Source: a virus
IMG/VR virus record: IMGVR_UViG_3300017778_004456
Span: 11,996 to 75,995 of that record
Reading direction: 5' to 3' (one strand)
DNA: 64,000 nucleotides
The notes under the pieces: model-generated
Told to the model about the DNA's origin: nothing
The model's input: only the letters and a program-made list of their open reading frames with translations
Database searches by the model: none
Made by a program: the position numbers and the translations under genes
In this document: positions 6,411-52,052 of the stretch, in pieces
Layout of the letters: each line of letters opens with the position of its first letter
Position numbering within the stretch: the stretch's first letter is position 1

Positions 6411-7025
6411 ATGAAGTGGAAAGACCTCGGGAAGATCATTGTTGAACATGCTCCCATCATTGGTGTCGCCCTTGGTGGACCGGCTGGCGGAAGTGTCGGC
6501 CAGATTATCTCCTCCGTCCTAGGCGTCGAGGAGAAACCCGAGGCGATCCTCTCCAAGCTCAAGGAAGATCCCATCAACTACGTGAAGGTCCTGGAGATCC
6601 AGAAGACTCACGAGCTCGAGATCCTGAGGGCAACCAACGCGGCTCACGCTGCGGATCAGTCGATCTTCGCTGACATCTACAAAGCCGAGCTGAAGTCTGA
6701 GTCCTGGATGGCTCGCAACTGGCGTCCGATGTTCGGAATGTCGGTGGCGATTTCGTTCTCGATTCAGATGCTCGGCGTTACCGCCGTCATGCTTCTTTCG
6801 CCCAAGGATGCGAATGATGTCATCAACGGAATGATTACGCTGATCCCGATCTGGGGTGTGGCGCTCTCCGTTCTGGGCATCAACATCGATCGCCGGTCCG
6901 AAGACAAGAGGGTCGAGGCTTCGGTCAAGCAGGGACAGAATGTTCCCTCTCGTCAGCCGAGGGGCCTCGCCGCCATTCTCTCTGGAGTTCTCTCCAAGGG
7001 CAAGCAGGATGACTCAACGACATAG
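6411..7025 (+). CDS. Holin (GTA 3TM-holin-like)
   Basis: APIIGVALGGPAGG N-terminus, SWMARNWRPMFG motif, hydrophobic helices, then RSEDKR; GGAG RBS. Confidence 0.7.
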   Translation: MKWKDLGKIIVEHAPIIGVALGGPAGGSVGQIISSVLGVEEKPEAILSKLKEDPINYVKVLEIQKTHELEILRATNAAHAADQSIFADIYKAELKSESWMARNWRPMFGMSVAISFSIQMLGVTAVMLLSPKDANDVINGMITLIPIWGVALSVLGINIDRRSEDKRVEASVKQGQNVPSRQPRGLAAILSGVLSKGKQDDSTT

Positions 7026-7495: not shown

Positions 7496-9184
7496 ATGTC
7501 TCTGTTCAAGCTAGAACGTCAGGGCGCAAACGCCTTCCGGGTGATTGCCGAGAAGACGAGTCCGAGACTTTTTGACACAATCAATCAGTTCCCCGGTCGT
7601 AAGCAGCGGAGCCCCGCTGGGCCGCTGTACGAACTAACGATTGCCAACTTACGCCACTTCACTGAGCGCCATCCCGACCTGCTCATGTGCAGCGCCCTGC
7701 ACGCTTGGTATGAGGAAGCGCATGGCGTTAAAATGGTCACACGGTTGGACGTAACTCCAGACACGTTCCGCTACCGGATGCCGCCCATGATTCACCAGAA
7801 GACGGCGATGGACCGCTTCTGGAAGTCAGGGACCTCATACTGGGGACTCTTCTTCGAGATGGGAACCGGCAAGACAAAGACTACGATTGACCTTGCTGGA
7901 ATCAAGTTCCTGACGGGACAGATCGACACGATGCTTGTCATCGCGCCGAAGGGCGTCCATACTCAGTGGTCGGTCAAGCAAATCCCGGAGCACATGAGCC
8001 CCGATGTCAACTTCTTCCAGTACCTCTGGAGACGTTCGGGCTCCAAGTCTGAGGTTGAGCTTCGGGAAGATATCATCAAGAAGGACGAGGACGCACTTCG
8101 CATCGTCTGTATGAACATCGACGCTTTGAACAGTAGCGCCGGATTTGACTTCGCCATGCGCTTCGTGAAGTCTGGTCGCTGCATGATGGTGGTCGACGAA
8201 TCCATTACGATCAAGAACTATCGCGCTCAGCGTACGAAGAATACTGTGGAACTCGGAGCCGAGTGTGTCGCTCGCACTATACTCAATGGCGCGCCGATCT
8301 CTAACGGTCCCCAGGACATATTCGGTCAGATGCTCTTCCTGTCGGCCAGCATCCTTGGAAGAAGCTTCATTCAGTTCCAGCATCAGTTCCTGGTGATGGG
8401 CGGCTTCCAAGGGCGTCAGGTTGTGGGTCACAAGAACCTCGAGCATCTGCAGCAGATCATTGACAAGCATTGCTTCCGCGTATTGTCGTCAGACTGTATC
8501 GATCTTCCCGAGCAGAACTTCATGGATCGATTCGTCGAGATGACCGACGAACAGGATGAGTGGTATCGCAAGGTCAAGGAAGATATTCTTGTCGAGATGA
8601 GTAATGGAGACGTCCTGGATACCTCCCAGGTGACCACGAGGTTCATCAAGCTTCAGCAGGTTTGCTGGGGATACATTAGGGATGCTGAGGGTGTCCCAAC
8701 GCGCATCGCGAACAACCGCGTGGACGCTGTGATAGACATTCTGGACGAGACCCGTGTCGAAGGGAACCGACGCACACCGACACTCGTCTTTTGTCGATTC
8801 CGTGAGGAGATCGCTATGATCGCGGAGCGGCTGCGGGATGAGAAGATATCCTTCAGGGAGTTTCACGGTGGCGTCTCCGGTACAGAGCGAGATCAAGCCT
8901 GTACGGACTTCCAGAACGGTGAGTTCGACGTCTTCATCATCAACTCGGCGGGCTACCGAGGTCTCGATCTCTGGCGCGCACGTCAGGTGATCTGGTATTC
9001 ACTGACATTCTCGTTGGATGAATACTCTCAGGCAAATAAGAGGCCTCACAGGGTTGGCCAGACTTACCCGGTCCGCTATATTCACCTTATCTCACCGGGC
9101 ACCCTGGACGTTCGTCTTGTCAAGGCTCTGCACCGGAAGGCAACCGTAGCTGAGATGCTACTTGACATCAGGGAGTCACTATGA
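7496..9184 (+). CDS. SNF2-family DNA helicase
   Basis: EMGTGKT (motif I), VVDES (II), LNGAP (III), GLDL and QANKRPHRVGQ (VI); AAAGGA RBS before ATG 7496. Confidence 0.9.
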   Translation: MSLFKLERQGANAFRVIAEKTSPRLFDTINQFPGRKQRSPAGPLYELTIANLRHFTERHPDLLMCSALHAWYEEAHGVKMVTRLDVTPDTFRYRMPPMIHQKTAMDRFWKSGTSYWGLFFEMGTGKTKTTIDLAGIKFLTGQIDTMLVIAPKGVHTQWSVKQIPEHMSPDVNFFQYLWRRSGSKSEVELREDIIKKDEDALRIVCMNIDALNSSAGFDFAMRFVKSGRCMMVVDESITIKNYRAQRTKNTVELGAECVARTILNGAPISNGPQDIFGQMLFLSASILGRSFIQFQHQFLVMGGFQGRQVVGHKNLEHLQQIIDKHCFRVLSSDCIDLPEQNFMDRFVEMTDEQDEWYRKVKEDILVEMSNGDVLDTSQVTTRFIKLQQVCWGYIRDAEGVPTRIANNRVDAVIDILDETRVEGNRRTPTLVFCRFREEIAMIAERLRDEKISFREFHGGVSGTERDQACTDFQNGEFDVFIINSAGYRGLDLWRARQVIWYSLTFSLDEYSQANKRPHRVGQTYPVRYIHLISPGTLDVRLVKALHRKATVAEMLLDIRESL

Positions 9185-9789
9185 CGGAAGATACCTTTGG
9201 TGAACAGATCATGTTCACTGACGATGACATCCAGAAGCCAGACCTTCTGGCAACTCGCGAGACGGGACTCCGCTGCGGAGAACTGATCGACGAGATGTTC
9301 AAGCTGAACTCGGAGGTGAACACTCTCGAGAAGACTGTCGAGGACAAGAAGGCCCGGATCAAGGAAATCTCAGAAGAGATGCTTCCTGGTCTGATGGCTT
9401 CGATGAACGTCGCCGAGTGGAAGTCCCTCTCGACCGGCGCGAAGGTGAAGCTGGAGGGTGTCTGCCGCGCCAGCCTGAAGAAGAAATCGCCCGACGACGT
9501 TGCTCTTCACGAGAACTTGGTCAGCTATCTGGCCGAGCAGGGTTACGACGCTATCGCCAAGCGGGAAGTCGCGGTCTACTACTCCGCAGACAAGGCTGCC
9601 GAGGCGAAGCTGCTTCACGCAGAGTTGGAGTCCCGCCAAGTTCCGGTCTCGATGGCGATCGACATCCACCACTCGACTCTGTCTGCGACCCTTCGGGAGA
9701 TCAGCAAGCAGGGCGGCGTCCTTCCGGACCCTGAGAAGACCGGTATCAATCTCTACCAAGCGACTGTCGCCAAGATCACGCTAAAGTGA
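9181..9789 (+). CDS. Replication-module hypothetical protein
   Basis: Overlaps the helicase stop; LPGLM and IHHSTLSATLRE motifs resemble proteins found in this position in YuA-like phages. Confidence 0.6.
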   Translation: MTEDTFGEQIMFTDDDIQKPDLLATRETGLRCGELIDEMFKLNSEVNTLEKTVEDKKARIKEISEEMLPGLMASMNVAEWKSLSTGAKVKLEGVCRASLKKKSPDDVALHENLVSYLAEQGYDAIAKREVAVYYSADKAAEAKLLHAELESRQVPVSMAIDIHHSTLSATLREISKQGGVLPDPEKTGINLYQATVAKITLK

Positions 9790-9861
9790 GTTGCGTGACG
9801 CCGTGCCTGCTTTATTACTAGGCGGGCCGCACTGGCAATAACGAAATCGGAGTAACGACTA

Positions 9862-10704
9862 ATGTCTGAAGATACAAAGAACGATCTGACTGTCACCAAG
9901 TTCGGCTCGCAGGACGTGGCGATCTTTAACGACGAGGACTTCGGCGCTGGCTTCCAGGAGATGGACAGCTCGCACACTATTGTCCCGATCCTGAAGATCA
10001 TCCAGGCCCTCTCGCCGCAGCTCCAGAAGTCCAAACCGCAGTACGTCAAGGAAGCCAAGTCCGGCATGTTCGTCATCTCGTCAACCAACGAGGTTCTCGA
10101 CGGCGAAGAAGTCGGCGCGACGGTGATCCCGGTCTACTTCTCGACCAAGTTCATCGAGTGGCGTCCGCGTGCGGCTGGCGGCGGCATCGCTGCTCGCTAC
10201 AAGTCTCAAGCTGAGTTCGACCGGATTCCCGGCACGATGAAGCGCGAGGACAAGGCGGGTTGGATCACCAAGGACGGCAACGAGATCATCGAGTACTATG
10301 ATTTCTTCGCCTTCCTTCTGAAGGACGGTGTGTTCTCGCCGATCCTTCTCTCCTTCAAGGGCAGCGCAATCCGGACCGCCAAGGTCTGGAACTCGCAGCT
10401 CAAAGGTCAGACCCAGAATGTCGGCGGCAAGCTCCGTCAGCTTCCCATGTTCTCCTACAGCTGGACTCTCCGCACTCAGGAGCAATCCAACTCGCAGGGA
10501 TCGTGGCACGGTCTGGTGATGTCTCGCGACAAATACATCGGCGAGATTGAGAACGGTGCTGCCATCGTTGCTGAGGCCCGTCTGCTTGTGGCGAACATCG
10601 TCGCCGGCACGGTTCGCGGCGCCGAGGAAAGCGAGGAGGACGGCGACGTTGCTGGTCCTGCTGGCGGCAAAGTCGGTGCGACTGGTAGCGACACCCTGAG
10701 CTAA
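9862..10704 (+). CDS. Putative single-stranded DNA-binding / annealing protein
   Basis: PILKIIQALSPQ, FIEWRPR and SNSQGSW motifs, acidic C-terminal tail, replication context. Confidence 0.6.
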   Translation: MSEDTKNDLTVTKFGSQDVAIFNDEDFGAGFQEMDSSHTIVPILKIIQALSPQLQKSKPQYVKEAKSGMFVISSTNEVLDGEEVGATVIPVYFSTKFIEWRPRAAGGGIAARYKSQAEFDRIPGTMKREDKAGWITKDGNEIIEYYDFFAFLLKDGVFSPILLSFKGSAIRTAKVWNSQLKGQTQNVGGKLRQLPMFSYSWTLRTQEQSNSQGSWHGLVMSRDKYIGEIENGAAIVAEARLLVANIVAGTVRGAEESEEDGDVAGPAGGKVGATGSDTLS

Positions 10705-11445: not shown

Positions 11446-11472
11446 ACGGGCGACCTTCGGGTCGCCCGTTTG
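11446..11472 (+). terminator. Intrinsic terminator-like hairpin
   Basis: acgggcgacc-TTCG-ggtcgcccgt followed by a short T run. Confidence 0.75.
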
Positions 11473-11485
11473 CAGGACGACTTCA

Positions 11486-12361
11486 ATGGAAATTGTACCG
11501 GATCAGTTTGATCGCCTCGTGGCGTATATGCACGAGCGCGAACGAATTAGGATAAGGAAAGAGGCTGGACAGCCCTTCCCGTGGTCTCAGGACATAATCT
11601 TTCAATCCGCCCGCTTCACGAACATCCGTAGATCTGATGATAAGACCACGAGATGGCTTAAGAACAACTGGATCACGCCGAACAAGGGCAAGGATCCTCT
11701 CGCAGAGTTTCGGAACGTAGCGATCTTCCGCTGGGTTGGAACCATCGAGTTCGCCCAGACTTACGGATGGCAACCTCACTGGAGCAAGTCTCGACTGATC
11801 GCTGTCATCGAGGGTATGATGGCTCAGAAGCGAAGACCGTTCACATCTGCGTATGTCATCTCTAACTTCGGCCTGAAGGGCTCGAAGGCGGCAGTAGTCG
11901 GAAACGTGATCGACGAGCTGAACAACAAGCTGGAAGCTCTGATCGTACACGTCGACGAGCACCAGACATGGGAGTCAGCCGATACGTTCCTGCGTGACAA
12001 TGTCTCAGGATTCGGCGGTACGGGCTTCATGTCCAAGGAAGTTCTAACAGATGCTATGGAGACCTCGTTCTTCGGACCTGTGACTGATCTGTTCACCTGG
12101 AGTCCTTTCGGACCCGGCGCTCGCCGTGGTCTGGTGAGAGCGTTCGGTCAGCCTCTGGAGAAGAAGATAAACGCAGATGTTGCACTGAGGCTGGGAAGGG
12201 CGTTATATTCTGCCTTAAGTCACGGCGTACTAGATGCTGATATGCCTCAGCCCTACAAAGATTTCACTCTTCACGATCTTCAGTTCGTGATGTGTGAGTT
12301 TGACAAGTACGAACGTATCCGCCTGGGACAAGGCCGCTCGAAAAGGGGTTACTCGCAATGA
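11486..12361 (+). CDS. aGPT-PPlase clade 1 / amino acid:DNA transferase family (thymine hypermodification)
   Basis: ERERIR...PWSQDIIFQSARFTNIRRSDDKTT, GFGGTGFMSKEVLTD, GPGARRGL and CEFDKYER motifs; adjacent to a thymidylate synthase homolog. Confidence 0.85.
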   Translation: MEIVPDQFDRLVAYMHERERIRIRKEAGQPFPWSQDIIFQSARFTNIRRSDDKTTRWLKNNWITPNKGKDPLAEFRNVAIFRWVGTIEFAQTYGWQPHWSKSRLIAVIEGMMAQKRRPFTSAYVISNFGLKGSKAAVVGNVIDELNNKLEALIVHVDEHQTWESADTFLRDNVSGFGGTGFMSKEVLTDAMETSFFGPVTDLFTWSPFGPGARRGLVRAFGQPLEKKINADVALRLGRALYSALSHGVLDADMPQPYKDFTLHDLQFVMCEFDKYERIRLGQGRSKRGYSQ

Positions 12362-13212
12362 ACGACATCACGGTCTTCATTCCGACCAAGGGTCGACTGG
12401 ACAAGCAGTACACCTACGACATCGTCAAAGCGACCGGGAATCACTTGCCGATTCTGGTCTGCCCTCCGGAAGAGGTTCCGGAGCACGAGAAGCGTGGTCG
12501 TCGAGCCGTTGGCTTCGCTCACGCGTACCTGAGTCAGTCGATCGACCACATCATTCACTTCCTGGCACACACGGATCGTGTGATCATCATGGATGACGAC
12601 CTGAGGTTCTCCAGGCGTATCAGCAAGGACGACTGGAAGCTTCGGATGGCAGACCCAACCGATATTCGGGACATGATCGATCAGATCGCCGACCTGCTGA
12701 CTGAACATCCTATGGTGGGTGTGTCTGCTCGCCAGAACAACAACAATCTCACCGCCGATCACCATACGATAGCGATGCGTCAGTCCCAAGTTCATGGGAT
12801 CTACGTTCCGTTCTTCAAGGAGCATGGGATCCATCCAGACAACGTCATTCTGAAGAGCGATTTCTTCATGACGCTGAATGTCCTGACACGAGGTAAGTCG
12901 AACGCCGTCCTGACGCAGTTCACCGTTGATCAGGCTGGCGGTTCCAACGCGCCGGGTGGAGTCAGCATCTATCGCTCGGTCGATTCGATGAACAAGGCGG
13001 CGATCCTTCTCCAGAACCTCTTCCCACAGTTCGTGAAACTCCGGGAGAAAACTACGAAGTGGAAGGGTCTCGAGACCTCCTTCATGGATGTGACTATATT
13101 CTGGAAGAAGGCTCTGGAGGCGGGACAACGCGGAGGTTGCCCGATGCCTGCCGAACCTGTATATTCCGATGAACAGCCAGCCCCACAGCAAGACCGGAGA
13201 GCCGCCATATGA
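12358..13212 (+). CDS. GT-A fold DNA-base glycosyltransferase (TET/JBP-associated, TAGT-like)
   Basis: VFIPTKGR start, IIMDDDL metal-binding motif, KSDFFMTL and SNAPGGVSIYR; translationally coupled inside the modification cluster. Confidence 0.8.
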   Translation: MNDITVFIPTKGRLDKQYTYDIVKATGNHLPILVCPPEEVPEHEKRGRRAVGFAHAYLSQSIDHIIHFLAHTDRVIIMDDDLRFSRRISKDDWKLRMADPTDIRDMIDQIADLLTEHPMVGVSARQNNNNLTADHHTIAMRQSQVHGIYVPFFKEHGIHPDNVILKSDFFMTLNVLTRGKSNAVLTQFTVDQAGGSNAPGGVSIYRSVDSMNKAAILLQNLFPQFVKLREKTTKWKGLETSFMDVTIFWKKALEAGQRGGCPMPAEPVYSDEQPAPQQDRRAAI

Positions 13213-14267
13213 CGAGAGTGATTTCTTCAGAGAAAGGCGGTATCGGTACTATCGTCGCTACTGATGTCGATTCTGCAATCGTTTCAGCAGTGAAGCTTCT
13301 GAAGGAGGAAGGTCTCGAGATCGCCAGCCGCGCGGGTCCGACTTTGGAGTATCCGACCCCAGTCGTTACGATCTATAAGAATCCTTCCCGCAAGGTCAGC
13401 TTCATGGAGGCACGGGATGCAAACCCATTCTTCCACCTGTTCGAGTCGCTCTGGATGCTGGGCGGCGGAGACGATCTCCCTTCACTCCTGATCTTCAACT
13501 CAAAGTTTGGACAGTTCTCAGATGACGGCAAGACTATTCGGGGTTCAGCATACGGTCGTCGCTGGCGAACATGGTTCGGTCACGATCAGCTCACGGACGC
13601 TGTCCAGAAGCTCAAGAACACGCCTGGAGACCGCCGAGTGGTTCTTCAGATGTGGGATGCTTTCTCTGATCCTGTGGTGCAGTCGAAAGATGTCCCCTGC
13701 AACACCGTCTGCTACTTCCGATGCCGAGATGGTAAGACATTGGACCTCACAGTCTCCAACAGAAGCAACGATGCTATCTATGGAGCCCTCGGAAGCAACG
13801 TCGTACACTTCAGTCTTCTGCTTGAATACGTGGCTTCGTCAGCAGGTCTTGAAGTCGGCACGTACTATCAATTCTCTAACTCCTACCACGGATACGTGGA
13901 GAATCCTATCTTCGCCAAACTTCTCTCTGGCTCTACAGCTCCTGCGACGTATGAGAAGATGGGTGTCCAAGCCTTCCCGCTGAACTCTGAGGACGGCGCG
14001 ATCAACGAGGACATCATGCTTCTTATGAAGTTCGTCAGAGAAGTTGCGGAGTCTCCTGACAAGAATTACATCACCCTGATGACTTCTCTGAATGAGCGGG
14101 TCTGGAACACCGAGTTCTTCCGCAAGGTGGTTGGCCCGATGATGATCGCCTACTTCTCCTGGAAGACCAGCGGCGGCATCAAGTGGGCGCAGAAGAACTT
14201 CAACATGACGATTGACTGGCACAATGCCTCGATGCGATGGCTCGAACGGAGAATGAAAAATGGCTGA
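13209..14267 (+). CDS. Thymidylate synthase homolog, probable dUMP hydroxymethylase
   Basis: ANPFFHLFESLWML, AYGRRWR, RRVVLQMWD, catalytic DVPCN and NRSNDAIYGALGSNVVHF (Asn at the dUMP-specificity position). Confidence 0.85.
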   Translation: MTRVISSEKGGIGTIVATDVDSAIVSAVKLLKEEGLEIASRAGPTLEYPTPVVTIYKNPSRKVSFMEARDANPFFHLFESLWMLGGGDDLPSLLIFNSKFGQFSDDGKTIRGSAYGRRWRTWFGHDQLTDAVQKLKNTPGDRRVVLQMWDAFSDPVVQSKDVPCNTVCYFRCRDGKTLDLTVSNRSNDAIYGALGSNVVHFSLLLEYVASSAGLEVGTYYQFSNSYHGYVENPIFAKLLSGSTAPATYEKMGVQAFPLNSEDGAINEDIMLLMKFVREVAESPDKNYITLMTSLNERVWNTEFFRKVVGPMMIAYFSWKTSGGIKWAQKNFNMTIDWHNASMRWLERRMKNG

Positions 14268-14871
14268 TGGCTCGCCGGACTACGGCATTCCGCTGACAGC
14301 CTCTGAGCTCTGGCTCAGCGGCAAGGTGATTCGCTACCATGCTTCCCCCACGATTAAGCATCAGACCACGGGCGAACACGCATGGGGCGTCGCCATCATG
14401 TGCAAGATTCTGTTCCCGGAGAAGTTCGCACAGCTCGTGGAATATCTCTTAACGCACGACGCGCCGGAGCTGGTCCTGGGAGACTGGCCTTATCCCGCCA
14501 AGAAGTTGATGAACGTCTACGAGCGTGAGGCTGAATGCGAAGCGGCGCTGATGTCTCCGTGGCAGAAGCCTCCGGGCTTCATGTCCGAGGAGGACGCGAT
14601 CATCTTCAAGGTCTGCGACATCGTCGAGCTGCTGATGCAGACGGCATACGAGATTGGCCTCGGAAACAATCACGTCGGCTATATTCATCGCAACGGTGAG
14701 CGTGTCCTGATGTCCCTTCTGATCAAATTGGAGGAGACGTCGAAGGGTGCTTATCGCGCGACGGCGGTCCACGCTAAGGTGAAGGATGTTGTCAGCCGGA
14801 TCATAAAAGATCAGGTTGAGCGCTATCTGCCTTCCCAGCCTAAGATGCAAGTTACCGAACAGGAGTCCTAA
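14260..14871 (+). CDS. HD-domain 5'-deoxynucleotidase-like protein
   Basis: RYH...QTTGEHAWGV...THDAPE...GDWPYPAK...KVCDIVE (YfbR-like pattern). Confidence 0.8.
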   Translation: MADGSPDYGIPLTASELWLSGKVIRYHASPTIKHQTTGEHAWGVAIMCKILFPEKFAQLVEYLLTHDAPELVLGDWPYPAKKLMNVYEREAECEAALMSPWQKPPGFMSEEDAIIFKVCDIVELLMQTAYEIGLGNNHVGYIHRNGERVLMSLLIKLEETSKGAYRATAVHAKVKDVVSRIIKDQVERYLPSQPKMQVTEQES

Positions 14872-15275
14872 TGTCCGCGAACGCAATCCAAATTGGCGGC
14901 TCTCACTACAAGGGCGAGTATCAGCACTGGGACTGGGTGTCGGACTGCAGCATTCACTATCTGATGGGCTGTGCAACGAAGTACGTGGTCAGGTGGCGCA
15001 AGAAGAACGGTCTCCAAGACCTCGAGAAGGCGAAGCACTATCTGATGAAGATGGAGGAGCTGATCGTCGAGGGTCGCTATCGTCCGACCGGGACCGCTCT
15101 CGAGCTTCGTCAGCGCCGAGCGCTTACCGAGATGTTCATTCGGGACAACTGCGTCGATCCTACCGAAGCTCAGTTCATCTACGTCTGCGCGCTCTGGGAT
15201 GATCCTGAGGAACTCGCCGTAGCTGCTCAGGCTATCGATAGTCTGATCATGGTGGCTTCGGCAGACAAATTCTGA
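14871..15275 (+). CDS. DUF3310 protein (nucleotide-kinase-like, associated with modification clusters)
   Basis: QIGGSHYK...GCATKYVVRWRKKNGLQDLEKAKHYL. Confidence 0.8.
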   Translation: MSANAIQIGGSHYKGEYQHWDWVSDCSIHYLMGCATKYVVRWRKKNGLQDLEKAKHYLMKMEELIVEGRYRPTGTALELRQRRALTEMFIRDNCVDPTEAQFIYVCALWDDPEELAVAAQAIDSLIMVASADKF

Positions 15276-15379
15276 CGCCGGGGTCACCACATAAAGAAAC
15301 TGCGTTGAGCAGCGCGCCGGGGTAAGTTACAGCTTACCCCGGCGTTGACAATGCGTAACCTCGCACATACAGGATTTAC

Positions 15380-17317
15380 ATGTCCGATCTTATCTCCAGG
15401 CTGATGGGCTGGTTCGCAGGGACCGTTACCGCGATCGACTTGGAGACCTACGACCCTCTCCTTGAGGAGCGTGGTCCGGGTTGGGCATTCGAGAACGCTG
15501 GTCACATCATTGGTGTCAGTCTCGCCTCCGAGAAGAAGGCGGTCTACTTGCCGATTCGGCACAAGTGCTGGGAGGCAACTCCCGGTGACTACCCGCACCA
15601 GAATGATCTCGACGACAAGCCCTTCACTGAGAACTATGATCCCGAAGAGGTCATGGAGTTCCTTCGCCGCCTGATGGTTGAGAGCGAGGAGCCTGTGATT
15701 TTCGCCAACGCGAACTACGATCTGGGCTGGCTCGAGACTGAGGGCAAGGTCTGGGAGCATCGCCGGCGCGTCGAAGATGTTCAGATGCAGGCTCCGCTGC
15801 TGGACGAACACTCCAGAAGCTTCGGCCTGGATATGCTGGGCCTCAAGTATTCCGAGAAGGGTCTTACGAAGCTGGGCGGCGATCTTGTCTCGCTGGGCAA
15901 GTCCCGCGGATACAGGTCCAAGGGCGCGGTGATGAAGTCTCTTGCCGAGTTGCCGATTGGTGTGGTCGCAGCCTACGCGGTTCGGGATGCCGAGGTTACT
16001 CTCGACGTCTGGTATACTCTGACTAAGATGATCGAGCAGCAGAACCTACAGCGCGTCTACAGCGAGCTGGAGATGCCTCTGCTTCCGTATCTGCGACAGG
16101 CTCGACGCCGTGGGATTCGGGTCGACATGGCTCGCGCTGAGGAGGTTGCCCATCAGTTCCTGAAGCTTGAGGAAGAGGCAACCGCAAAGCTCAAGCACGA
16201 GACCGGGATCGACCTCACCGGAGACCTCTGGAAAGCCGAGAAGGTCGCCAAGGTTCTGGATTACGCAGGGATCCCATACCCTCTGACTCCCAAGACCAAG
16301 AAACCTTCCATCGACAAGGACTTCCTGAACGACATCGACAACCCGATCACCGACATGATTCTTCAGGCGCGCAAGTTCGAGAGAGCTCGCAGCACCTTCG
16401 TCGAGGGCTTCGTGATGAACGGCTCGATCAACGGCCGGATTCACTGTCAGCTTAACTCCCTGAAGTCTGACGATGGTGGTACTATCTCTGGACGCTTCTC
16501 CTGCTCCGACCCCAACCTTCAGCAGATCCCTGCACGCGACCCTGAGATTGGTCCGCTTGTCCGGAGCTGTTTCCTGGGCGACGAGGAATGCGACTGGGTG
16601 TCCATGGACTACTCTCAGCAGGAACCGCGTTGGATGGTGGAGATGGCTCTTCGCTGCGGGTTCACATCTTCGCTGCCGTTCGTGGAAGCTTATCAGAACA
16701 ACCCCAAGACAGACTTCCACCAGCTTAACGCTGACATCGCCGGCATCAAACGGAAGGAGGCCAAGGAGATTGGTCTGGGTCTCGCGTATGCGATGGGTGG
16801 CGGCAAACTCGCCCGGAAGCTGGGTCTGGAAATTGAACTCAAGACTTTCCGTGATCGGCGTACTGGCGAGATGGTCGAGTACGAGGCGGCGGGTAAGGAA
16901 GCCCAAGCTATCATTGACAAGTTTCACCGGGGCTCGCCATACATCAACGACCTCGACAAGATGTGCCGCGGTCAGGTTCGCTCGAAGGGTTATCTGCGGA
17001 CACCGCTCGGTCGACGATTCAGGTTCCCGATTCTACCTACCGGCGAGCAGTGGAAACCTCACAAGGCGATGAACGCTCTTATCCAAGGTTCTGCCGCTGA
17101 CGAGACAAAGACCGCCATGCTGGCCCTTTACAGAGCAGGCATCCCGCCTATACTTAGTGTTCACGACGAGGTAGCACTGACGCACACTCGAGATCGTGAA
17201 GTTATCCGGGCGGCTGCGAACATTATGATCAACGCTGTTCCGAAAACTGTGCCGTCCATGGTCGACATTGAAGTCGGCAGGTCGTGGGGCGAATGTGTCG
17301 CATTGGAGACAGAGTGA
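15380..17317 (+). CDS. polA: Family A DNA polymerase with 3'-5' exonuclease
   Basis: Exo motifs DLET, NANYD, YAVRD; SGRFSCSDPNLQQIP; motif A DYSQQEPR; motif B RKEAKEIGLGLAY; motif C VHDE. Confidence 0.95.
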   Translation: MSDLISRLMGWFAGTVTAIDLETYDPLLEERGPGWAFENAGHIIGVSLASEKKAVYLPIRHKCWEATPGDYPHQNDLDDKPFTENYDPEEVMEFLRRLMVESEEPVIFANANYDLGWLETEGKVWEHRRRVEDVQMQAPLLDEHSRSFGLDMLGLKYSEKGLTKLGGDLVSLGKSRGYRSKGAVMKSLAELPIGVVAAYAVRDAEVTLDVWYTLTKMIEQQNLQRVYSELEMPLLPYLRQARRRGIRVDMARAEEVAHQFLKLEEEATAKLKHETGIDLTGDLWKAEKVAKVLDYAGIPYPLTPKTKKPSIDKDFLNDIDNPITDMILQARKFERARSTFVEGFVMNGSINGRIHCQLNSLKSDDGGTISGRFSCSDPNLQQIPARDPEIGPLVRSCFLGDEECDWVSMDYSQQEPRWMVEMALRCGFTSSLPFVEAYQNNPKTDFHQLNADIAGIKRKEAKEIGLGLAYAMGGGKLARKLGLEIELKTFRDRRTGEMVEYEAAGKEAQAIIDKFHRGSPYINDLDKMCRGQVRSKGYLRTPLGRRFRFPILPTGEQWKPHKAMNALIQGSAADETKTAMLALYRAGIPPILSVHDEVALTHTRDREVIRAAANIMINAVPKTVPSMVDIEVGRSWGECVALETE

Positions 17318-17787
17318 GATATTTCGGAATTAAGTGGGACGCAAGATTCCTACAGCTCGCACAGATTGTTTCGACGTGGTCCAAAGACCCAAGCACGAAA
17401 GTCGGCGCCGTTCTGGTGCGTCCTGACAAGACCATTGCGGCGACCGGTTACAACGGATTCCCAATGGGCTGTTCGGACTCAGACGCGATGTATGAGGATC
17501 GTGACGAGAAGCTGGGCCGTGTGGTTCACGCTGAACTCAACTGCTGCCTCGCGGCTAACGAGAACTGTACCGGATACACAATCTACATTTATCCGCCGTC
17601 TGCGTTCAAGACTGCGACGTGTGATCGCTGCGCTGCGGCGATCATTCAACGTAAGATTCACAGAGTGGTTTCCTACTACGACATCAACGCAGTCTTCAAG
17701 GAATCCTGGAGACCCTCGTTCGATCGGTCTCTCAGGATGTACCAGGAAGCCGGTGTCCTTGTGGATGCCATTCCGCTGCTGCCCTAA
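17284..17787 (+). CDS. dCMP deaminase
   Basis: SKDPSTKVGA, GYNGFP, HAE and CDRC zinc motifs; exact start uncertain. Confidence 0.9.
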   Translation: MGRMCRIGDRVRYFGIKWDARFLQLAQIVSTWSKDPSTKVGAVLVRPDKTIAATGYNGFPMGCSDSDAMYEDRDEKLGRVVHAELNCCLAANENCTGYTIYIYPPSAFKTATCDRCAAAIIQRKIHRVVSYYDINAVFKESWRPSFDRSLRMYQEAGVLVDAIPLLP

Positions 17788-18792: not shown

Positions 18793-19221
18793 ATGCAAAC
18801 CTTCCTTCCATACCCGTGCTTCGCCGAGTCCCTTGCCGCGCTAGATTACCGACGTCTCGGTAAGCAGCGCGTCGAAGCCAAGCAGCTTCTAAACGCGATC
18901 CAAGGTAATTCTAAAGGCTGGGGCAACCATCCCGCTGCGATTATGTGGCGTCAGTATGTTCCCGCGCTTATGGTCTACCATGACCTGTCGATTCACGAGT
19001 GGACTAAGCGCGGCTACAGAAACTCAATGCCGTTCTTCTACGAGCCCGGTTCCGAAGTTACCTGGGATACTCCATGGTGGCTTGGCGATCCAGACTTTCA
19101 CGCTTCGCACCGTAGCAATCTCCTGCGTAAATACGCGGTACACTACGGACAATTTAATTGGTCAGAGTCTCCCAATCTCGAGTACATCTGGCCTTCGGAG
19201 TACCCGCCCAATGGATCTTAA
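18793..19221 (+). CDS. Pyrimidine-dimer DNA glycosylase family protein (MSMEG_6728-like)
   Basis: MQTFLPY...LDYRRLGKQRVEAKQ...NHPAAIMW...PWWLG...SHRSNLLRK. Confidence 0.85.
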   Translation: MQTFLPYPCFAESLAALDYRRLGKQRVEAKQLLNAIQGNSKGWGNHPAAIMWRQYVPALMVYHDLSIHEWTKRGYRNSMPFFYEPGSEVTWDTPWWLGDPDFHASHRSNLLRKYAVHYGQFNWSESPNLEYIWPSEYPPNGS

Positions 19222-21581: not shown

Positions 21582-22077
21582 TCCTCAGTTCGCGCAGGCT
21601 TTTGTCTATCACTACATGACCTGTAGTGATGGGACGAAGGCTATGGCAAGAGCGTGGGTCGACACGACCGGTAGCCTTCTGGATGATGAGCGCGCCGAGA
21701 ACATGGCGGCGGAGTACATGCTCACGCCAGCTTTCCGGAATACACTAGCCGACGCTCGCTCCAGCATGAAGCGTCCGTACCAAGCTCGTTTGGAAGAACA
21801 CATCGAGCAACTGGCGCTGATTCGCGACGCAGCCCTAGGAGCTGAGAAGTTCTCGGCAGCAGTTTCCGCAGAGATCGCTCGCGGCAAGGTTCAGCGATTC
21901 TACGACCCGCCCAAGGATGACAGCGATCCCCTCAAGGACGGCGACCTAAAGAAGCTCGGTGATGAAGACCTTCGGAAGAAGGCTTCTGAGATCATCGCAA
22001 GGCGCAAGCTGAGCGCAGAATCTGTGAGTATGCCAAGTGTTGAAGGAGCTTTCAGCGGAAGACCTACTGACGAGTGA
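21472..22077 (+). CDS. terS: Terminase small subunit (putative)
   Basis: Helical protein with AAVSAEIARGK motif overlapping the large subunit; start uncertain. Confidence 0.6.
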   Translation: MTRKDSPVPTTPLPTSLPVTRSSNDSEPYPDTLVLRSPQFAQAFVYHYMTCSDGTKAMARAWVDTTGSLLDDERAENMAAEYMLTPAFRNTLADARSSMKRPYQARLEEHIEQLALIRDAALGAEKFSAAVSAEIARGKVQRFYDPPKDDSDPLKDGDLKKLGDEDLRKKASEIIARRKLSAESVSMPSVEGAFSGRPTDE

Positions 22078-23494
22078 GGAAGAAACCGAGGAGGAGATTC
22101 TTCGGGAGTATGTCGCACGTCAAGAAGGTCGAGAGTCCCTCGCGGGATACACCCGGTACGTCCTGGGTCTGGAGCCGGCTAAGCATCATCTACTATTCTG
22201 CTCAGCCCTGGATCGTGTCATCAGCGGCGAGTCTCGGCGCCTGATCATCTCAGCTCCGCCGGGTAGCGCGAAATCAACCTACGCCAGCGTTGCTCTTCCC
22301 GCATACGCTCTTGCGAAGCTGCCCAAGGGTGAACGATTCGTATCGGCTTCGTACTCCAAGGAACTTGCTCTGGAGCAGGGTCGCAAGGTCCGCAATCTTA
22401 TTGACTCGGAGGAGCACAGCATACTCTTTCCTGACAGCATTGTCAGCGCGAACGATCGATCCGCAAACCGTTTCTCTACTACGAAGGGAACAGCCTACTA
22501 CTCCACAGGCGTCGGCGGTTCTATCACCGGAAAGCGCGCGACGATTTTGTCAATGGACGACTTGATCAAGGGACGCCAGCAGGCGGACTCCAAAGGTGAG
22601 CGGGAGAAGGTCTGGAGCTGGTACCTCTCGGACGCCTTCACGCGACTCTTCCCACATGGCCGGATTGTGTTCATCATGACACGCTGGCACGAGGAAGACC
22701 CCATTGGTAAGATCTTGGATCAGGCGCAGAAGTCCGGAGAACAGTGGGAGTACATTCGGATCGAGGCGCTCTGTGACAACCCGGCGGAAGATCCGTTGGG
22801 CCGCAAGCTGGGAGAACCCTACTGGCCCGAATGGGAATCCAAAGAGTCGCTGCTCTCCAAGAAGGAAGGTATCGGTCCTCGTGAGTGGGCTTGTCTGTAC
22901 CAGCAACGTCCCTCACCGCAGGAGGGAACTCAGGTCCTACGGAGTTGGTTTAAGAAGTTCAAGCCCAACGATCTGGAAGGCGTACCGCTGATCTTCTACG
23001 ATAGCTACGACACCGCATCCAAAATTGAGCAACGTAACGACCCGACCGTGCGTCTCCGCTTCGCTGTGGATCCTACCGGCAACGTCTACCTGTGGGAAAT
23101 CGAAAAGAAGAAGGTCGAGTTTACAGATCTGGTGAAGCTGTTCTCCGCAGCCGCTGTGAGGAGAACTCGCGGTCAGACAATCTCCTCCAGCCTGATCGAG
23201 GACAAGGGTACGGGAACGTCGCTCATCCAGAGTGTCAAGAAGTCACACAATGTGATTCCCTGTACCCCGGAGTCAGAGGGTGACAAAGCCTTCCGATTCG
23301 AGGCAGCTTCGGACTTCTTCGAGGCAGGTCGCTTCTACTACAACTCCGAAGACCCTCTCGCCGCAGACTACATCGAGGAACTTGTGACGTTCCCAGGTGG
23401 AAAGCACGACGACATGGTGGATGCGACCTCGCAGTTCATCTCCTGGGTCAAGAAGAAAGCTGGTCGCCGCGGTTCCGGCAAACTTCGTCACTAA
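22037..23494 (+). CDS. terL: Terminase large subunit
   Basis: APPGSAKST Walker A, LSMDD Walker B, MTRWHEED, YQQRP; nuclease motifs SYDTA, IEDK and HDDMVDA. Confidence 0.92.
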   Translation: MLKELSAEDLLTSEEETEEEILREYVARQEGRESLAGYTRYVLGLEPAKHHLLFCSALDRVISGESRRLIISAPPGSAKSTYASVALPAYALAKLPKGERFVSASYSKELALEQGRKVRNLIDSEEHSILFPDSIVSANDRSANRFSTTKGTAYYSTGVGGSITGKRATILSMDDLIKGRQQADSKGEREKVWSWYLSDAFTRLFPHGRIVFIMTRWHEEDPIGKILDQAQKSGEQWEYIRIEALCDNPAEDPLGRKLGEPYWPEWESKESLLSKKEGIGPREWACLYQQRPSPQEGTQVLRSWFKKFKPNDLEGVPLIFYDSYDTASKIEQRNDPTVRLRFAVDPTGNVYLWEIEKKKVEFTDLVKLFSAAAVRRTRGQTISSSLIEDKGTGTSLIQSVKKSHNVIPCTPESEGDKAFRFEAASDFFEAGRFYYNSEDPLAADYIEELVTFPGGKHDDMVDATSQFISWVKKKAGRRGSGKLRH

Positions 23495-40704: not shown

Positions 40705-41289
40705 TCATAGGTTCCATCCGCTCTGGGTAGGAGTGTGGTCACGTAGAGTCTTGTGGAATTCTGGTAGCGGGATAAACGTCCGTTCGGAGAAGCCCTCCCA
40801 GACAGCGGGAAGCTCGAACTCGTCCACCATCGATTCCCAAACCTCTCGCTCGACTCCGTGACGATTCCGCTCGAAGACCTTATTTCGCTGAAACTTCGTC
40901 ACCGGCGGAAAGAAGGCGACAGCCTCAACTCGGAAACCATACTCGTGAAGGAGTCTGATCATCGGTTCTCGGATACCGGTGTTGACGTTCACCTGATCCC
41001 AGACGAAATCCGTGCGATTCTCCAGTAGTACGTCGAGTTCGGCGCCTACGAGCATCTTAGCGTAGAAGTTGAGCTTCTCATCGTTAGTGACTTCTGTGAA
41101 GGAGGTGTTCATCCTTCTTGCTATGTCCTCGCAGATAGCATCGAGGCTGAGAACCTTGACGTTCGACGGGACGTGATGCTTGATCCAGGTGCTCTTTCCA
41201 GCACCCGGCACGCCGATCATCATCGTACATGTCGGCGGGAACATGAATCGCTTGAGTTTAGTCATAGTAGCCGAGATCGTTTTTGTCAT
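40705..41289 (-). CDS. P-loop kinase (AAA_33 / polynucleotide kinase-like)
   Basis: MIGVPGAGKST, SLD, VWDQVN, R-rich lid and ELPAVWEGF. Confidence 0.8.
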   Translation of the reverse strand: MTKTISATMTKLKRFMFPPTCTMMIGVPGAGKSTWIKHHVPSNVKVLSLDAICEDIARRMNTSFTEVTNDEKLNFYAKMLVGAELDVLLENRTDFVWDQVNVNTGIREPMIRLLHEYGFRVEAVAFFPPVTKFQRNKVFERNRHGVEREVWESMVDEFELPAVWEGFSERTFIPLPEFHKTLRDHTPTQSGWNL

Positions 41290-51897: not shown

Positions 51898-52052
51898 TAT
51901 GGGCTACCCTAGGGGCAACCTGCCTGCGGCATAATGCCGCACCCCGGTTCCGTGGCATGGTTTGTGGCAATGCATGTACCGTGCCAAGCGCCGCCCGCCT
52001 ACCTGCGGCATATAGCCGCACCCTTTGGGGCGTTTTTGTTGCTTGGGGCTAG

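Follow-up and report, generated by a model that had tools for sequence, protein, structure and literature searches.

A predicted glycosyltransferase-type version of the 5-hydroxymethyldeoxyuridine hypermodification operon in an uncultured virus

Gene content of the operon

We analysed a stretch of 64,000 bases (the window), corresponding to bases 11996–75995 of the 75,995-base IMG/VR viral contig IMGVR_UViG_3300017778_004456, the completeness of which was estimated by CheckV at ~75%. At window positions 11486–15275 the plus strand carries a candidate operon for thymidine hypermodification, made of five genes: a clade-1 aGPT-Pplase, or HMUDK_hel, gene (gene 1, 11486–12361, 291 aa; PF18723), a TAGT-family GT-A glycosyltransferase (GT) gene (gene 2, 12358–13212, 284 aa; PF20691), a thymidylate synthase (TS) homolog predicted to be a dUMP hydroxymethylase (gene 3, 13209–14267, 352 aa; PF00303), an HD-domain phosphohydrolase gene (gene 4, 14260–14871, 203 aa; HD_3) and a gene for a DUF3310 protein, a predicted nucleotide kinase (gene 5, 14871–15275, 134 aa; PF11753). 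A family A DNA polymerase with a 3'-5' exonuclease domain (Pol A; 15380–17317, 645 aa) and a dCMP deaminase (17284–17787, 167 aa) follow on the same strand. An earlier note on this DNA had described five coupled genes followed by these two, in agreement with the coordinates of the open reading frames (ORFs) and with the Pfam and PHROGs matches.

Successive genes of the operon overlap by 4, 4, 8 and 1 bases and are thus translationally coupled, and the overlaps together with two flanking hairpins delimit genes 1–5 as a single discrete unit. The upstream hairpin (11448–11467, plus strand), G+C-rich with an 8-bp stem and a TTCG loop followed by GTTT, lies after the preceding gene and was seen by direct reading of the sequence, not being listed by a consensus terminator scan; the operon probably has its 5' boundary there. 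Gene 1 is preceded by a ribosome-binding site, AGGA (11474–11477, plus strand). The downstream hairpin (15315–15344, plus strand; 12-bp stem), likewise read from the sequence, follows the DUF3310 stop codon, has TTGACA (15345–15350) immediately 3' of it and probably marks the 3' boundary of the operon and the promoter region of Pol A. Matches of the operon to phages by blastn were only short (60–180 bases), and it therefore has no close cultured relative.

The gene 2 protein matches TAGT (PF20691; 33.5 bits, cut-off 27.5), a family whose characterised members we take to be DNA glucosyltransferases, and phrog_842, annotated as 'beta-glucosyl-HMC-alpha-glucosyltransferase' (1.1e-31). Its AlphaFold2 (AF2) model, built from an alignment, has a GT-A fold (mean pLDDT 89.6). 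Phage DNA GT-A enzymes and the base J glucosyltransferase (JGT) share an R...DDD...EDY/F motif, according to a recent preprint (bioRxiv 10.1101/2023.12.21.572611). Our 67-sequence alignment shows no or hardly any variation at R13, D79-D80-D81 and D168, and at the last motif site D168-F169 is kept, but Ser167 replaces the family-consensus Glu. By phmmer the only match in the PDB was a chance one (E 0.45), and Foldseek placed TarP at the top (E 1.2e-5), with POMGnT1 and TarS also found (probability 1.00). On this basis gene 2 is predicted to code for a DNA glycosyltransferase acting on 5-hydroxymethyldeoxyuridine (5-hmdU; base hmU). The presence of a dUMP-type TS homolog and a dCMP deaminase is the reason why the acceptor should be hmU, and, being the sole GT in the contig, the enzyme would have to act on the base hydroxyl itself.

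The gene 3 protein matches Thymidylat_synt (PF00303; 66.3 bits) and phrog_5131 (9.6e-94), its closest named homologs, at 38–40% identity, being those of PhiJL001, Ab18, M6 and Pam3. Diagnostic residues were mapped by HMMER alignments to solved TS chains and by a 61-sequence alignment, and are given with their E. coli ThyA equivalents: Cys164 (C146), Asp161 (L143), Asp188 (D169) and Asn197 (N177). According to Lee et al. 2026 (PMC13326640), C146 is catalytic, N177 goes with the use of dUMP and Asp at that position with the use of dCMP, L143 accompanies methylation and an acidic residue there hydroxymethylation, and D169N is found in 5-hydroxy-dCMP synthases. The Cys, Asp169 and Asn177 equivalents are present in 61/61 homologs and Asp at the L143 position in 53 of the 61. 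The residue pattern is thus the one expected of a dUMP hydroxymethylase, as gene 3 is predicted to be; the dUMP-type Asn, already pointed out in the earlier note, is Asn197.

The remaining genes are assigned to nucleotide metabolism and replication. Gene 4, syntenic with the HD genes of SN1, PaMx11 and PhiJL001, matches HD_3 (27.5 bits), YfbR-like (21.6 bits), phrog_6047, phrog_7076 and phrog_318; its product is probably a 5'-deoxynucleotidase/dNTPase-like enzyme reshaping the pyrimidine nucleotide pool. Gene 5, 35% identical to the syntenic SN1 gene, matches DUF3310 (PF11753; 35.5 bits, cut-off 24), phrog_5839 and six PHROGs that carry a 'nucleotide kinase' or 'kinase' annotation (e.g., phrog_236 at 5.6e-13). 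We predict a nucleotide (hmdUMP) kinase of the phage DUF3310 type, a type presumably linked to T7 gp1.7. Pol A is recognised by PF00476 (161.6 bits), PF01612 and phrog_17, and the dCMP deaminase by PF00383 (58.7 bits) and phrog_174 (1.7e-36).

The clade-1 protein

The gene 1 protein matches HMUDK_hel (PF18723) with 106.4 bits (E 2.2e-30, cut-off 25) over profile positions 4–277 of 281, as well as phrog_2396. PF18723 is the renamed aGPT-Pplase clade 1, while clade 2 corresponds to PF18724 (now 'ADDT'). PF18724 did not match gene 1 at E up to 0.01 nor any other part of the contig, the SN1 control giving 160 bits. All proven amino acid:DNA transferases (AADTs), namely M6 gp51, PaMx11 gp46, ViI gp247 and PhiW-14 gp109, belong to clade 2/PF18724 and transfer an amino acid or putrescine onto phosphorylated hmU (PMC8989533). 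The label 'aGPT-PPlase1/AADT', given to gene 1 in the earlier note, therefore fuses two families, and gene 1 belongs to the first.

Clade-1 proteins of M6/SN1/PaMx11/Pam3/CN1-type phages are 25–32% identical to the gene 1 protein. The M6 member was identified as gp55, which comes next after the kinase gp54 in accession order; the M6 match of the gene 1 protein sits just upstream of the M6 TS homolog, and PhiW-14 gp72, another match, is annotated as similar to M6 ORF055. For an alignment and a maximum-likelihood tree, 52 clade-1 sequences were used, 44 from GT-type and eight from kinase-type loci. R18, R49, D52, K134, F181, D189, G209-P210-G211, C270, E271 and K274 are invariant (52/52), and F44, N46, R82, Y123, D201, G215 and Y275 are kept in at least 49 of the 52. 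Every one of these residues occurs in all eight kinase-type proteins, except G215 (7/8). Moreover, the tree mixes kinase-type and GT-type proteins, PaMx11 gp50 being for example sister to PhiJL001 gp19. The shared invariant residues and the intermixed tree indicate that the role of clade-1 does not depend on the adduct and is the same in kinase-type and GT-only phages. They also argue against another suggestion of the earlier note, that of an AADT homolog using a different donor.

The AF2 model of the gene 1 protein (mean pLDDT 92.7, pTM 0.88) is all-helical, with 12 helices. VIA-align of the model to 48,161 chains gave as best neighbour the queuosine-5'-monophosphate hydrolase QNG1/DUF2419 (7u07; Z 10.4), together with PaMx11 gp46 PUGT (8z2m; Z 10.3, 220 residues aligned, rmsd 4.1) and helix-hairpin-helix (HhH) DNA glycosylases at Z 6–10 (Ogg, AGOG, Mag1, NTHL1 and EndoIII at Z 8–10); since Z values of this size frequently arise by chance among helical proteins, these fold matches are supportive only. 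No match was retrieved in the PDB by phmmer, nor by Foldseek at E up to 0.001. An HhH DNA-glycosylase-like fold is nevertheless credible for the model, because the match list is consistent and a Pfam clan relation exists. An hhalign comparison of clade 2 with clade 1 (31 columns, probability 2%) placed F181 at Trp146, E185 at Lys150 and D189 at Asp153 of PUGT, the catalytic residues of which include Trp146 and Lys150 (PMC11472151).

Domain fusions bear on the level at which clade-1 acts. SP10 gp186 is a kinase with a C-terminal aG/PT-PPlase domain (PMC5889632, Table 3), and the ESM Atlas contains a viral cluster of HMUDK_hel fused to HMUDK_HMUD1, the 5-hmdU DNA kinase (76 members), as well as a cluster of HMUDK_hel–chromodomain fusions in Basidiomycota (139 members). 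The fusions to the kinase are the reason for the Pfam name HMUDK_hel, and both kinds of fusion favour, and suggest, a role at the DNA or chromatin level. A complex prediction for the GT and the clade-1 protein, with alignments as input, gave a score of 0.00 and a mark of 0.32, which counts neither for nor against binding. Two more specific activities were considered. Thymine-DNA glycosylase activity was dropped, M6 and ViI DNA retaining most of their T (PMC8989533). Reduction of phosphorylated hmU to T was set aside because the contig has no hmU kinase. Such a reduction is reportedly suggested by Warren's work on PhiW-14.

Relatives and comparison with known pathways

A locus search with the GT sequence alone retrieved no relative; with aligned GT homologs as the query, 65 IMG/VR loci were obtained. 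Clade-1 was found in 55 of the 65 (phmmer and profile), the TS homolog in 59 and a second GT in 11. In 23 loci a radical S-adenosylmethionine (radical-SAM)/SPASM gene of ~344 aa (e.g., L007:1442–2476), absent here, lies between the GT and the TS homolog, which suggests further tailoring of the sugar or the base in this subgroup. No kinase or AADT was detected within ~9 kb in any of the 65 loci, using phmmer with the SN1 proteins and two-sequence profiles at E up to 10. Likewise, PF18748 (5-hmdU DNA kinase) was found in none of 24 whole IMG/VR contigs (completeness 90% or higher in 12) and in neither of the two complete cultured genomes, PhiJL001 and LuckyBarnes. Among the 10 loci without clade-1, at least six are cut by the contig end at the place expected for the gene (L005, L032, L035, L047, L057, L061), in L054 the sequence preceding the GT is limited to ~1.1 kb, and in L060 the gene context differs. 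The gene is truly missing in L019 and L025, PF18723 having no match in the respective whole contigs of 98 kb (G008) and 45,122 bases (G022). The latter has terminal repeats, is 100% complete and carries GT, TS, HD and DUF3310 genes without clade-1.

In cultured phages, tblastn with the gene 2 GT identified PhiJL001 gp22, annotated as glucosyl transferase, and two GTs of the Brevibacterium phage LuckyBarnes. PhiJL001, a Keylargovirus infecting Alphaproteobacteria, shares within gp19–gp30 the clade-1, GT and TS trio and the HD, DUF3310, Pol A and dCMP deaminase genes in the same order, but differs in additional small genes and in an Nmad5 gene that separates the GT from TS; its order is gp19 (clade 1), gp20, gp21, GT, Nmad5, TS, HD, DUF3310, Pol, dCMP deaminase. 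In LuckyBarnes gp38–gp41 the order is reversed and there are two GTs (TS, GT, GT, clade 1), the clade-1 protein scoring 230 bits on PF18723. The trio thus reaches an actinophage, and the arrangement spans phages of Proteobacteria and Actinobacteria. Its rarity, implied in the earlier note, was overstated in view of these two phages and the 65 loci. In the two complete genomes, PF18748 and PF18724 give no match above cut-off. Protein identities between the operon and PhiJL001 or LuckyBarnes are only 27–40%. A literature search retrieved no report on the DNA chemistry of these two phages, and the available part of PMC11946847 makes no mention of it.

The kinase-type clusters show what is shared and what is replaced. 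The order in SN1, an M6-like phage, is AADT, pyridoxal phosphate (PLP) enzyme, radical-SAM enzyme, kinase, clade 1, Nmad5, TS, HD, DUF3310, Pol, dCMP deaminase; in PaMx11 it is AADT, flavin (FAD) enzyme, acetyltransferase, kinase, clade 1, TS, HD. Bordetella phage CN1, Pam3, Stenotrophomonas phage Bhz59 and Rhizobium phage RHph_I72 share this SN1/PaMx11 gene plan, and an Ackermannviridae phage has clade 1 immediately upstream of its dUMP hydroxymethylase. The operon described here has the same backbone order as the M6/SN1/PaMx11/Pam3/CN1 clusters (clade 1, TS, HD, DUF3310, Pol A, dCMP deaminase), but lacks the 5-hmdU DNA kinase, the clade-2 AADT, the PLP, radical-SAM and FAD enzymes, the acetyltransferase and Nmad5 of M6/SN1/PaMx11-type phages, and the TAGT glycosyltransferase fills the slot between clade-1 and TS. 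With the backbone kept, the upstream cassette gone and a GT in, gene order indicates that the backbone from clade 1 to dCMP deaminase is constant and that the modifying cassette is exchangeable.

Two further systems were compared. The beta-glucosyl-HMC alpha-glucosyltransferase of T2/T6 and the 5mYOX/ThyS-associated GT-A enzymes share with gene 2 the Pfam family, PHROG, GT-A fold and motif set, but act on 5hmC or glucosyl-5hmC, whereas the expected acceptor of the gene 2 enzyme is hmU. The kinetoplastid base J pathway (JBP1/2 and JGT) resembles the present one in the predicted glycosylated hmU product and in a TAGT-type GT-A enzyme, JGT being compared by family only. It differs in that hmU would be made here before replication by the TS homolog, without a Tet/JBP dioxygenase, and in that the replacement would probably be genome-wide instead of confined to rare sites.

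Proposed pathway and its alternatives

Profile searches were extended to the whole 75,995-base contig, as the earlier note had proposed. No match was found to the 5-hmdU DNA kinase PF18748 (E up to 1), radical SAM (PF04055), Nmad5 (PF18757) or TGT/DpdA (PF01702). The same was true of Tet/JBP (PF12851) at E up to 0.1, a negative that is weakly controlled, as the control genomes do not have the family. By tblastn, the SN1 kinase, AADT, PLP, radical-SAM and Nmad5 proteins gave nothing below E 0.4. The lack of kinase, PLP and radical-SAM genes described in that note for the cluster thus extends to the contig as a whole, as far as PF18748, PF18724, PF04055 and the tblastn searches are concerned.

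We consider it somewhat likelier than an even chance that the operon represents, in a glycosyltransferase-type form, the 5-hmdU hypermodification region of M6/YuA/PhiJL001-like siphoviruses, with direct glycosylation by the GT and clade-1 as an auxiliary. In this pathway, the dCMP deaminase would supply dUMP, which the TS homolog would convert into hmdUMP; the DUF3310 kinase and then host enzymes would bring hmdUMP to hmdUTP, with the HD hydrolase trimming competing nucleotides, and Pol A would incorporate hmdUTP, thus placing 5-hmdU in the phage DNA. The single TAGT-type GT would then glycosylate the 5-CH2OH of hmU in DNA with an NDP-sugar as donor, leading to a base J-like 5-(glycosyloxymethyl)uracil with no phosphorylated intermediate and no amino-acid transfer. 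For clade-1, the weakest step, we propose a factor that works at the DNA level with specificity for hmU-DNA, that probably flips bases and that is probably catalytic. Common to every hmU-hypermodifying pathway, it would serve the first hydroxyl-attacking enzyme, that is the kinase in M6-type phages and the GT here, helping without being essential. Profile matches and diagnostic residues are the basis for the nucleotide steps and for the family of the GT; the acceptor, the sugar and what clade-1 does are inferred. Most likely, judging from the gene content, the product is glycosylated 5-hmdU. The proposal of the earlier note, a thymine modification operon with a TAGT-like GT, is supported in this respect, a sugar-bearing hmU being the most economical product; it is not supported where gene 1 was taken as an AADT or as an AADT homolog with a different donor.

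Several observations weigh against this pathway. The absences come from a contig that is incomplete according to CheckV, and the proven PaMx11 kinase gp49 (L073:5408–5977) scores 17 bits on PF18748, where the cut-off is 27 and SN1 scores 65 bits, so that divergent real kinases could escape this model. The best solved-structure matches of the GT are the wall-teichoic-acid glycosyltransferases TarP and TarS, and QNG1/DUF2419, the best structural match of clade-1, has a free nucleotide and not DNA as its substrate. Clade-1 is not obligatory, as both G022 and the 98-kb G008 have GT, TS, HD and DUF3310 without it. In addition, M6 lysates without gp52, gp53 and gp55 still yielded the glycinyl intermediate (PMC8989533), gp55 being dispensable in vitro; because of this and of the complete GT-type genome without the gene, clade-1 would not be essential for the first transfer. 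Finally, the contig encodes a stand-alone AAA_33 P-loop kinase (40705–41289, minus strand, 194 aa; Walker A GVPGAGKS; PF13671, 69.8 bits). It alone is a candidate for a cryptic hmU kinase. When all ORFs were scanned for Walker A there were three matches, the other two being large helicase/primase genes.

This last gene is the core of one alternative, in which the AAA_33 kinase phosphorylates 5-hmdU in DNA, clade-1 is the group transferase and the GT sugars the adduct or leftover hmU, giving a new doubly elaborated base. The kinase is of the right size and superfamily, the proven PaMx11 5-HMUDK matches AAA_33 as well, and clade-1 has the PUGT fold together with a conserved polar site. Yet the gene lies ~25 kb from the operon on the opposite strand, in a neighbourhood of short genes of unknown function (DUF7352, DUF6197); phage relatives of the kinase bear polynucleotide kinase annotations, several beside an RNA ligase; it has the Walker A alone in common with PaMx11 gp49, and PF18748 does not match it at E up to 1. 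AAA_33 scored above cut-off solely in the study contig and in PaMx11 gp49 among the genomes compared, and was absent from 28 related ones; PhiJL001, LuckyBarnes and the 24 GT-type contigs, where clade-1 and GT are retained, gave no small AAA_33 kinase. The hhalign comparison, of low confidence, moreover puts a Glu at the glycine-binding Lys150 of PUGT. The enzyme is probably polynucleotide-kinase-like and outside the pathway, and we regard this route as improbable. As to a kinase pathway elsewhere in the genome, which the earlier note had named as a possible counter-finding, a P-loop kinase is thus present, but it looks polynucleotide-kinase-like and is missing from relatives. That the GT, like TarP, instead decorates a protein or a polymer of the host surface, leaving the phage DNA with plain 5-hmdU or T, also seems rather improbable to us. 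The top solved structures are TarP, TarS and other non-DNA GT-A enzymes, and ~65% of the GT contigs mined by Pyle et al. have no adjoining base-modification gene (bioRxiv 10.1101/2023.12.21.572611). TarP is the best solved match for the phage DNA GT-A enzymes of that preprint as well. Against this reading, gene 2 is coupled in translation to both of its neighbours, clade-1 and the TS homolog, it scores above the TAGT cut-off, and the neighbourhood is kept in most of the 65 loci, across phages of Proteobacteria and Actinobacteria.

A third possibility concerns the sub-role of gene 1 only: clade-1 may work on free nucleotides, e.g., as an N-glycosidase/hydrolase shaping the dUMP/dTMP/hmdUMP pool. 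It would fit the QNG1/DUF2419 match, the near-constant adjacency of the gene to a TS homolog, in Mesyanzhinovviridae and in an Ackermannviridae phage, and the nucleotide-acting nature of the other operon genes TS, HD and DUF3310. DNA or chromatin is instead indicated by the fusions with the DNA kinase and with chromodomains (ESM Atlas; PMC5889632, Table 3), PUGT, a DNA enzyme, matches equally well, and the family is reported by Lee et al. 2018 (PMC5889632) to be absent from SPO1, whose DNA contains hmU without hypermodification; we consider this role unlikely. There is very little room, instead, for an ordinary nucleotide-metabolism cluster, with dTMP as the product of the TS homolog and without any unusual base. 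The protein does belong to the Pfam thymidylate synthase family and many database records name its relatives 'thymidylate synthase', but Asp161 replaces the water-excluding Leu143, the closest relatives come from phages with 5-hmdU-derived DNA, M6 and PaMx11 (PMC8989533), and the gene is linked to a DNA GT family and to a hypermodification-specific protein.

Neighbouring features and implications

Other features of the window were recorded. A gene for a GTA-type 3TM holin (PF11351) and, just upstream of the operon, genes for Pam3 gp33-like and gp34-like proteins were found (6411–7025 and 9181–10704); of the 68 clustered sources, 29–37 have genes for gp33-like and gp34-like proteins and an SNF2 helicase upstream. 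The replication module includes, at 18793–19221, a homolog of pyrimidine-dimer DNA glycosylases (PF03013, 80.8 bits), and a similar Pyr_excise gene occurs in 18 related loci. A terminase large-subunit gene (Terminase_6N/6C, 22037–23494) lies inside the replication/nucleotide block, flanked by genes for an RNase T-like exonuclease and a class II-like ribonucleotide reductase. The segment 51809–52731 is nearly devoid of TC/GA, consisting of gaps of 140 and 782 bases with a single TC at 51949 between them. Genome-wide, TC+GA amount to 16.6 per 100 bases and are over-represented (observed/expected 1.36 and 1.32), and TA is depleted (0.64). A link of this island to sequence-selective base modification is conceivable.

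Parts of the picture were already on record. Iyer et al. 2013 (NAR 41:7635) reportedly defined aGPT-Pplase, TAGT and Nmad5, and may already have predicted glycosylated hmU in phages. The GenBank record of PhiJL001 (AY576273.1) carries these gene annotations, and contigs with ThyS and GT-A have been catalogued in bulk (Pyle et al., bioRxiv 10.1101/2023.12.21.572611). Our full-text literature search, which did not reach Iyer et al. 2013, yielded no paper that describes glycosylated hmU in the DNA of a phage or that links clade-1 to a GT.

The thymidine hypermodification pathways worked out so far all begin with a DNA kinase and a clade-2 transferase, and the clade-1 paralog, which Pfam labels a kinase helical domain, had been known solely from thymine modification of the kinase-based kind. 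Here clade-1 is kept, with its conserved site unchanged, in complete phage genomes that have a GT and no kinase. The operon and its relatives thus separate the function of clade-1 from phosphorylation and narrow its possible roles; PhiJL001 and LuckyBarnes, being cultured, are convenient test systems. A bolder version, which we hold tentatively and think doubtful as a whole, is that base J-like hmU made without a kinase occurs in this phage and in dozens of uncultured relatives, as the first case outside eukaryotes, and that clade-1 is a universal hmU-DNA reader or flipper licensing, and perhaps patterning, the first-step enzyme, be it kinase or GT; such patterning could relate to the 920-bp TC/GA-free island. 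If hmU is indeed glycosylated, base J-type chemistry would extend to bacterial viruses, providing a new substrate class for restriction and anti-restriction studies and enzyme tools for tagging 5hmU.

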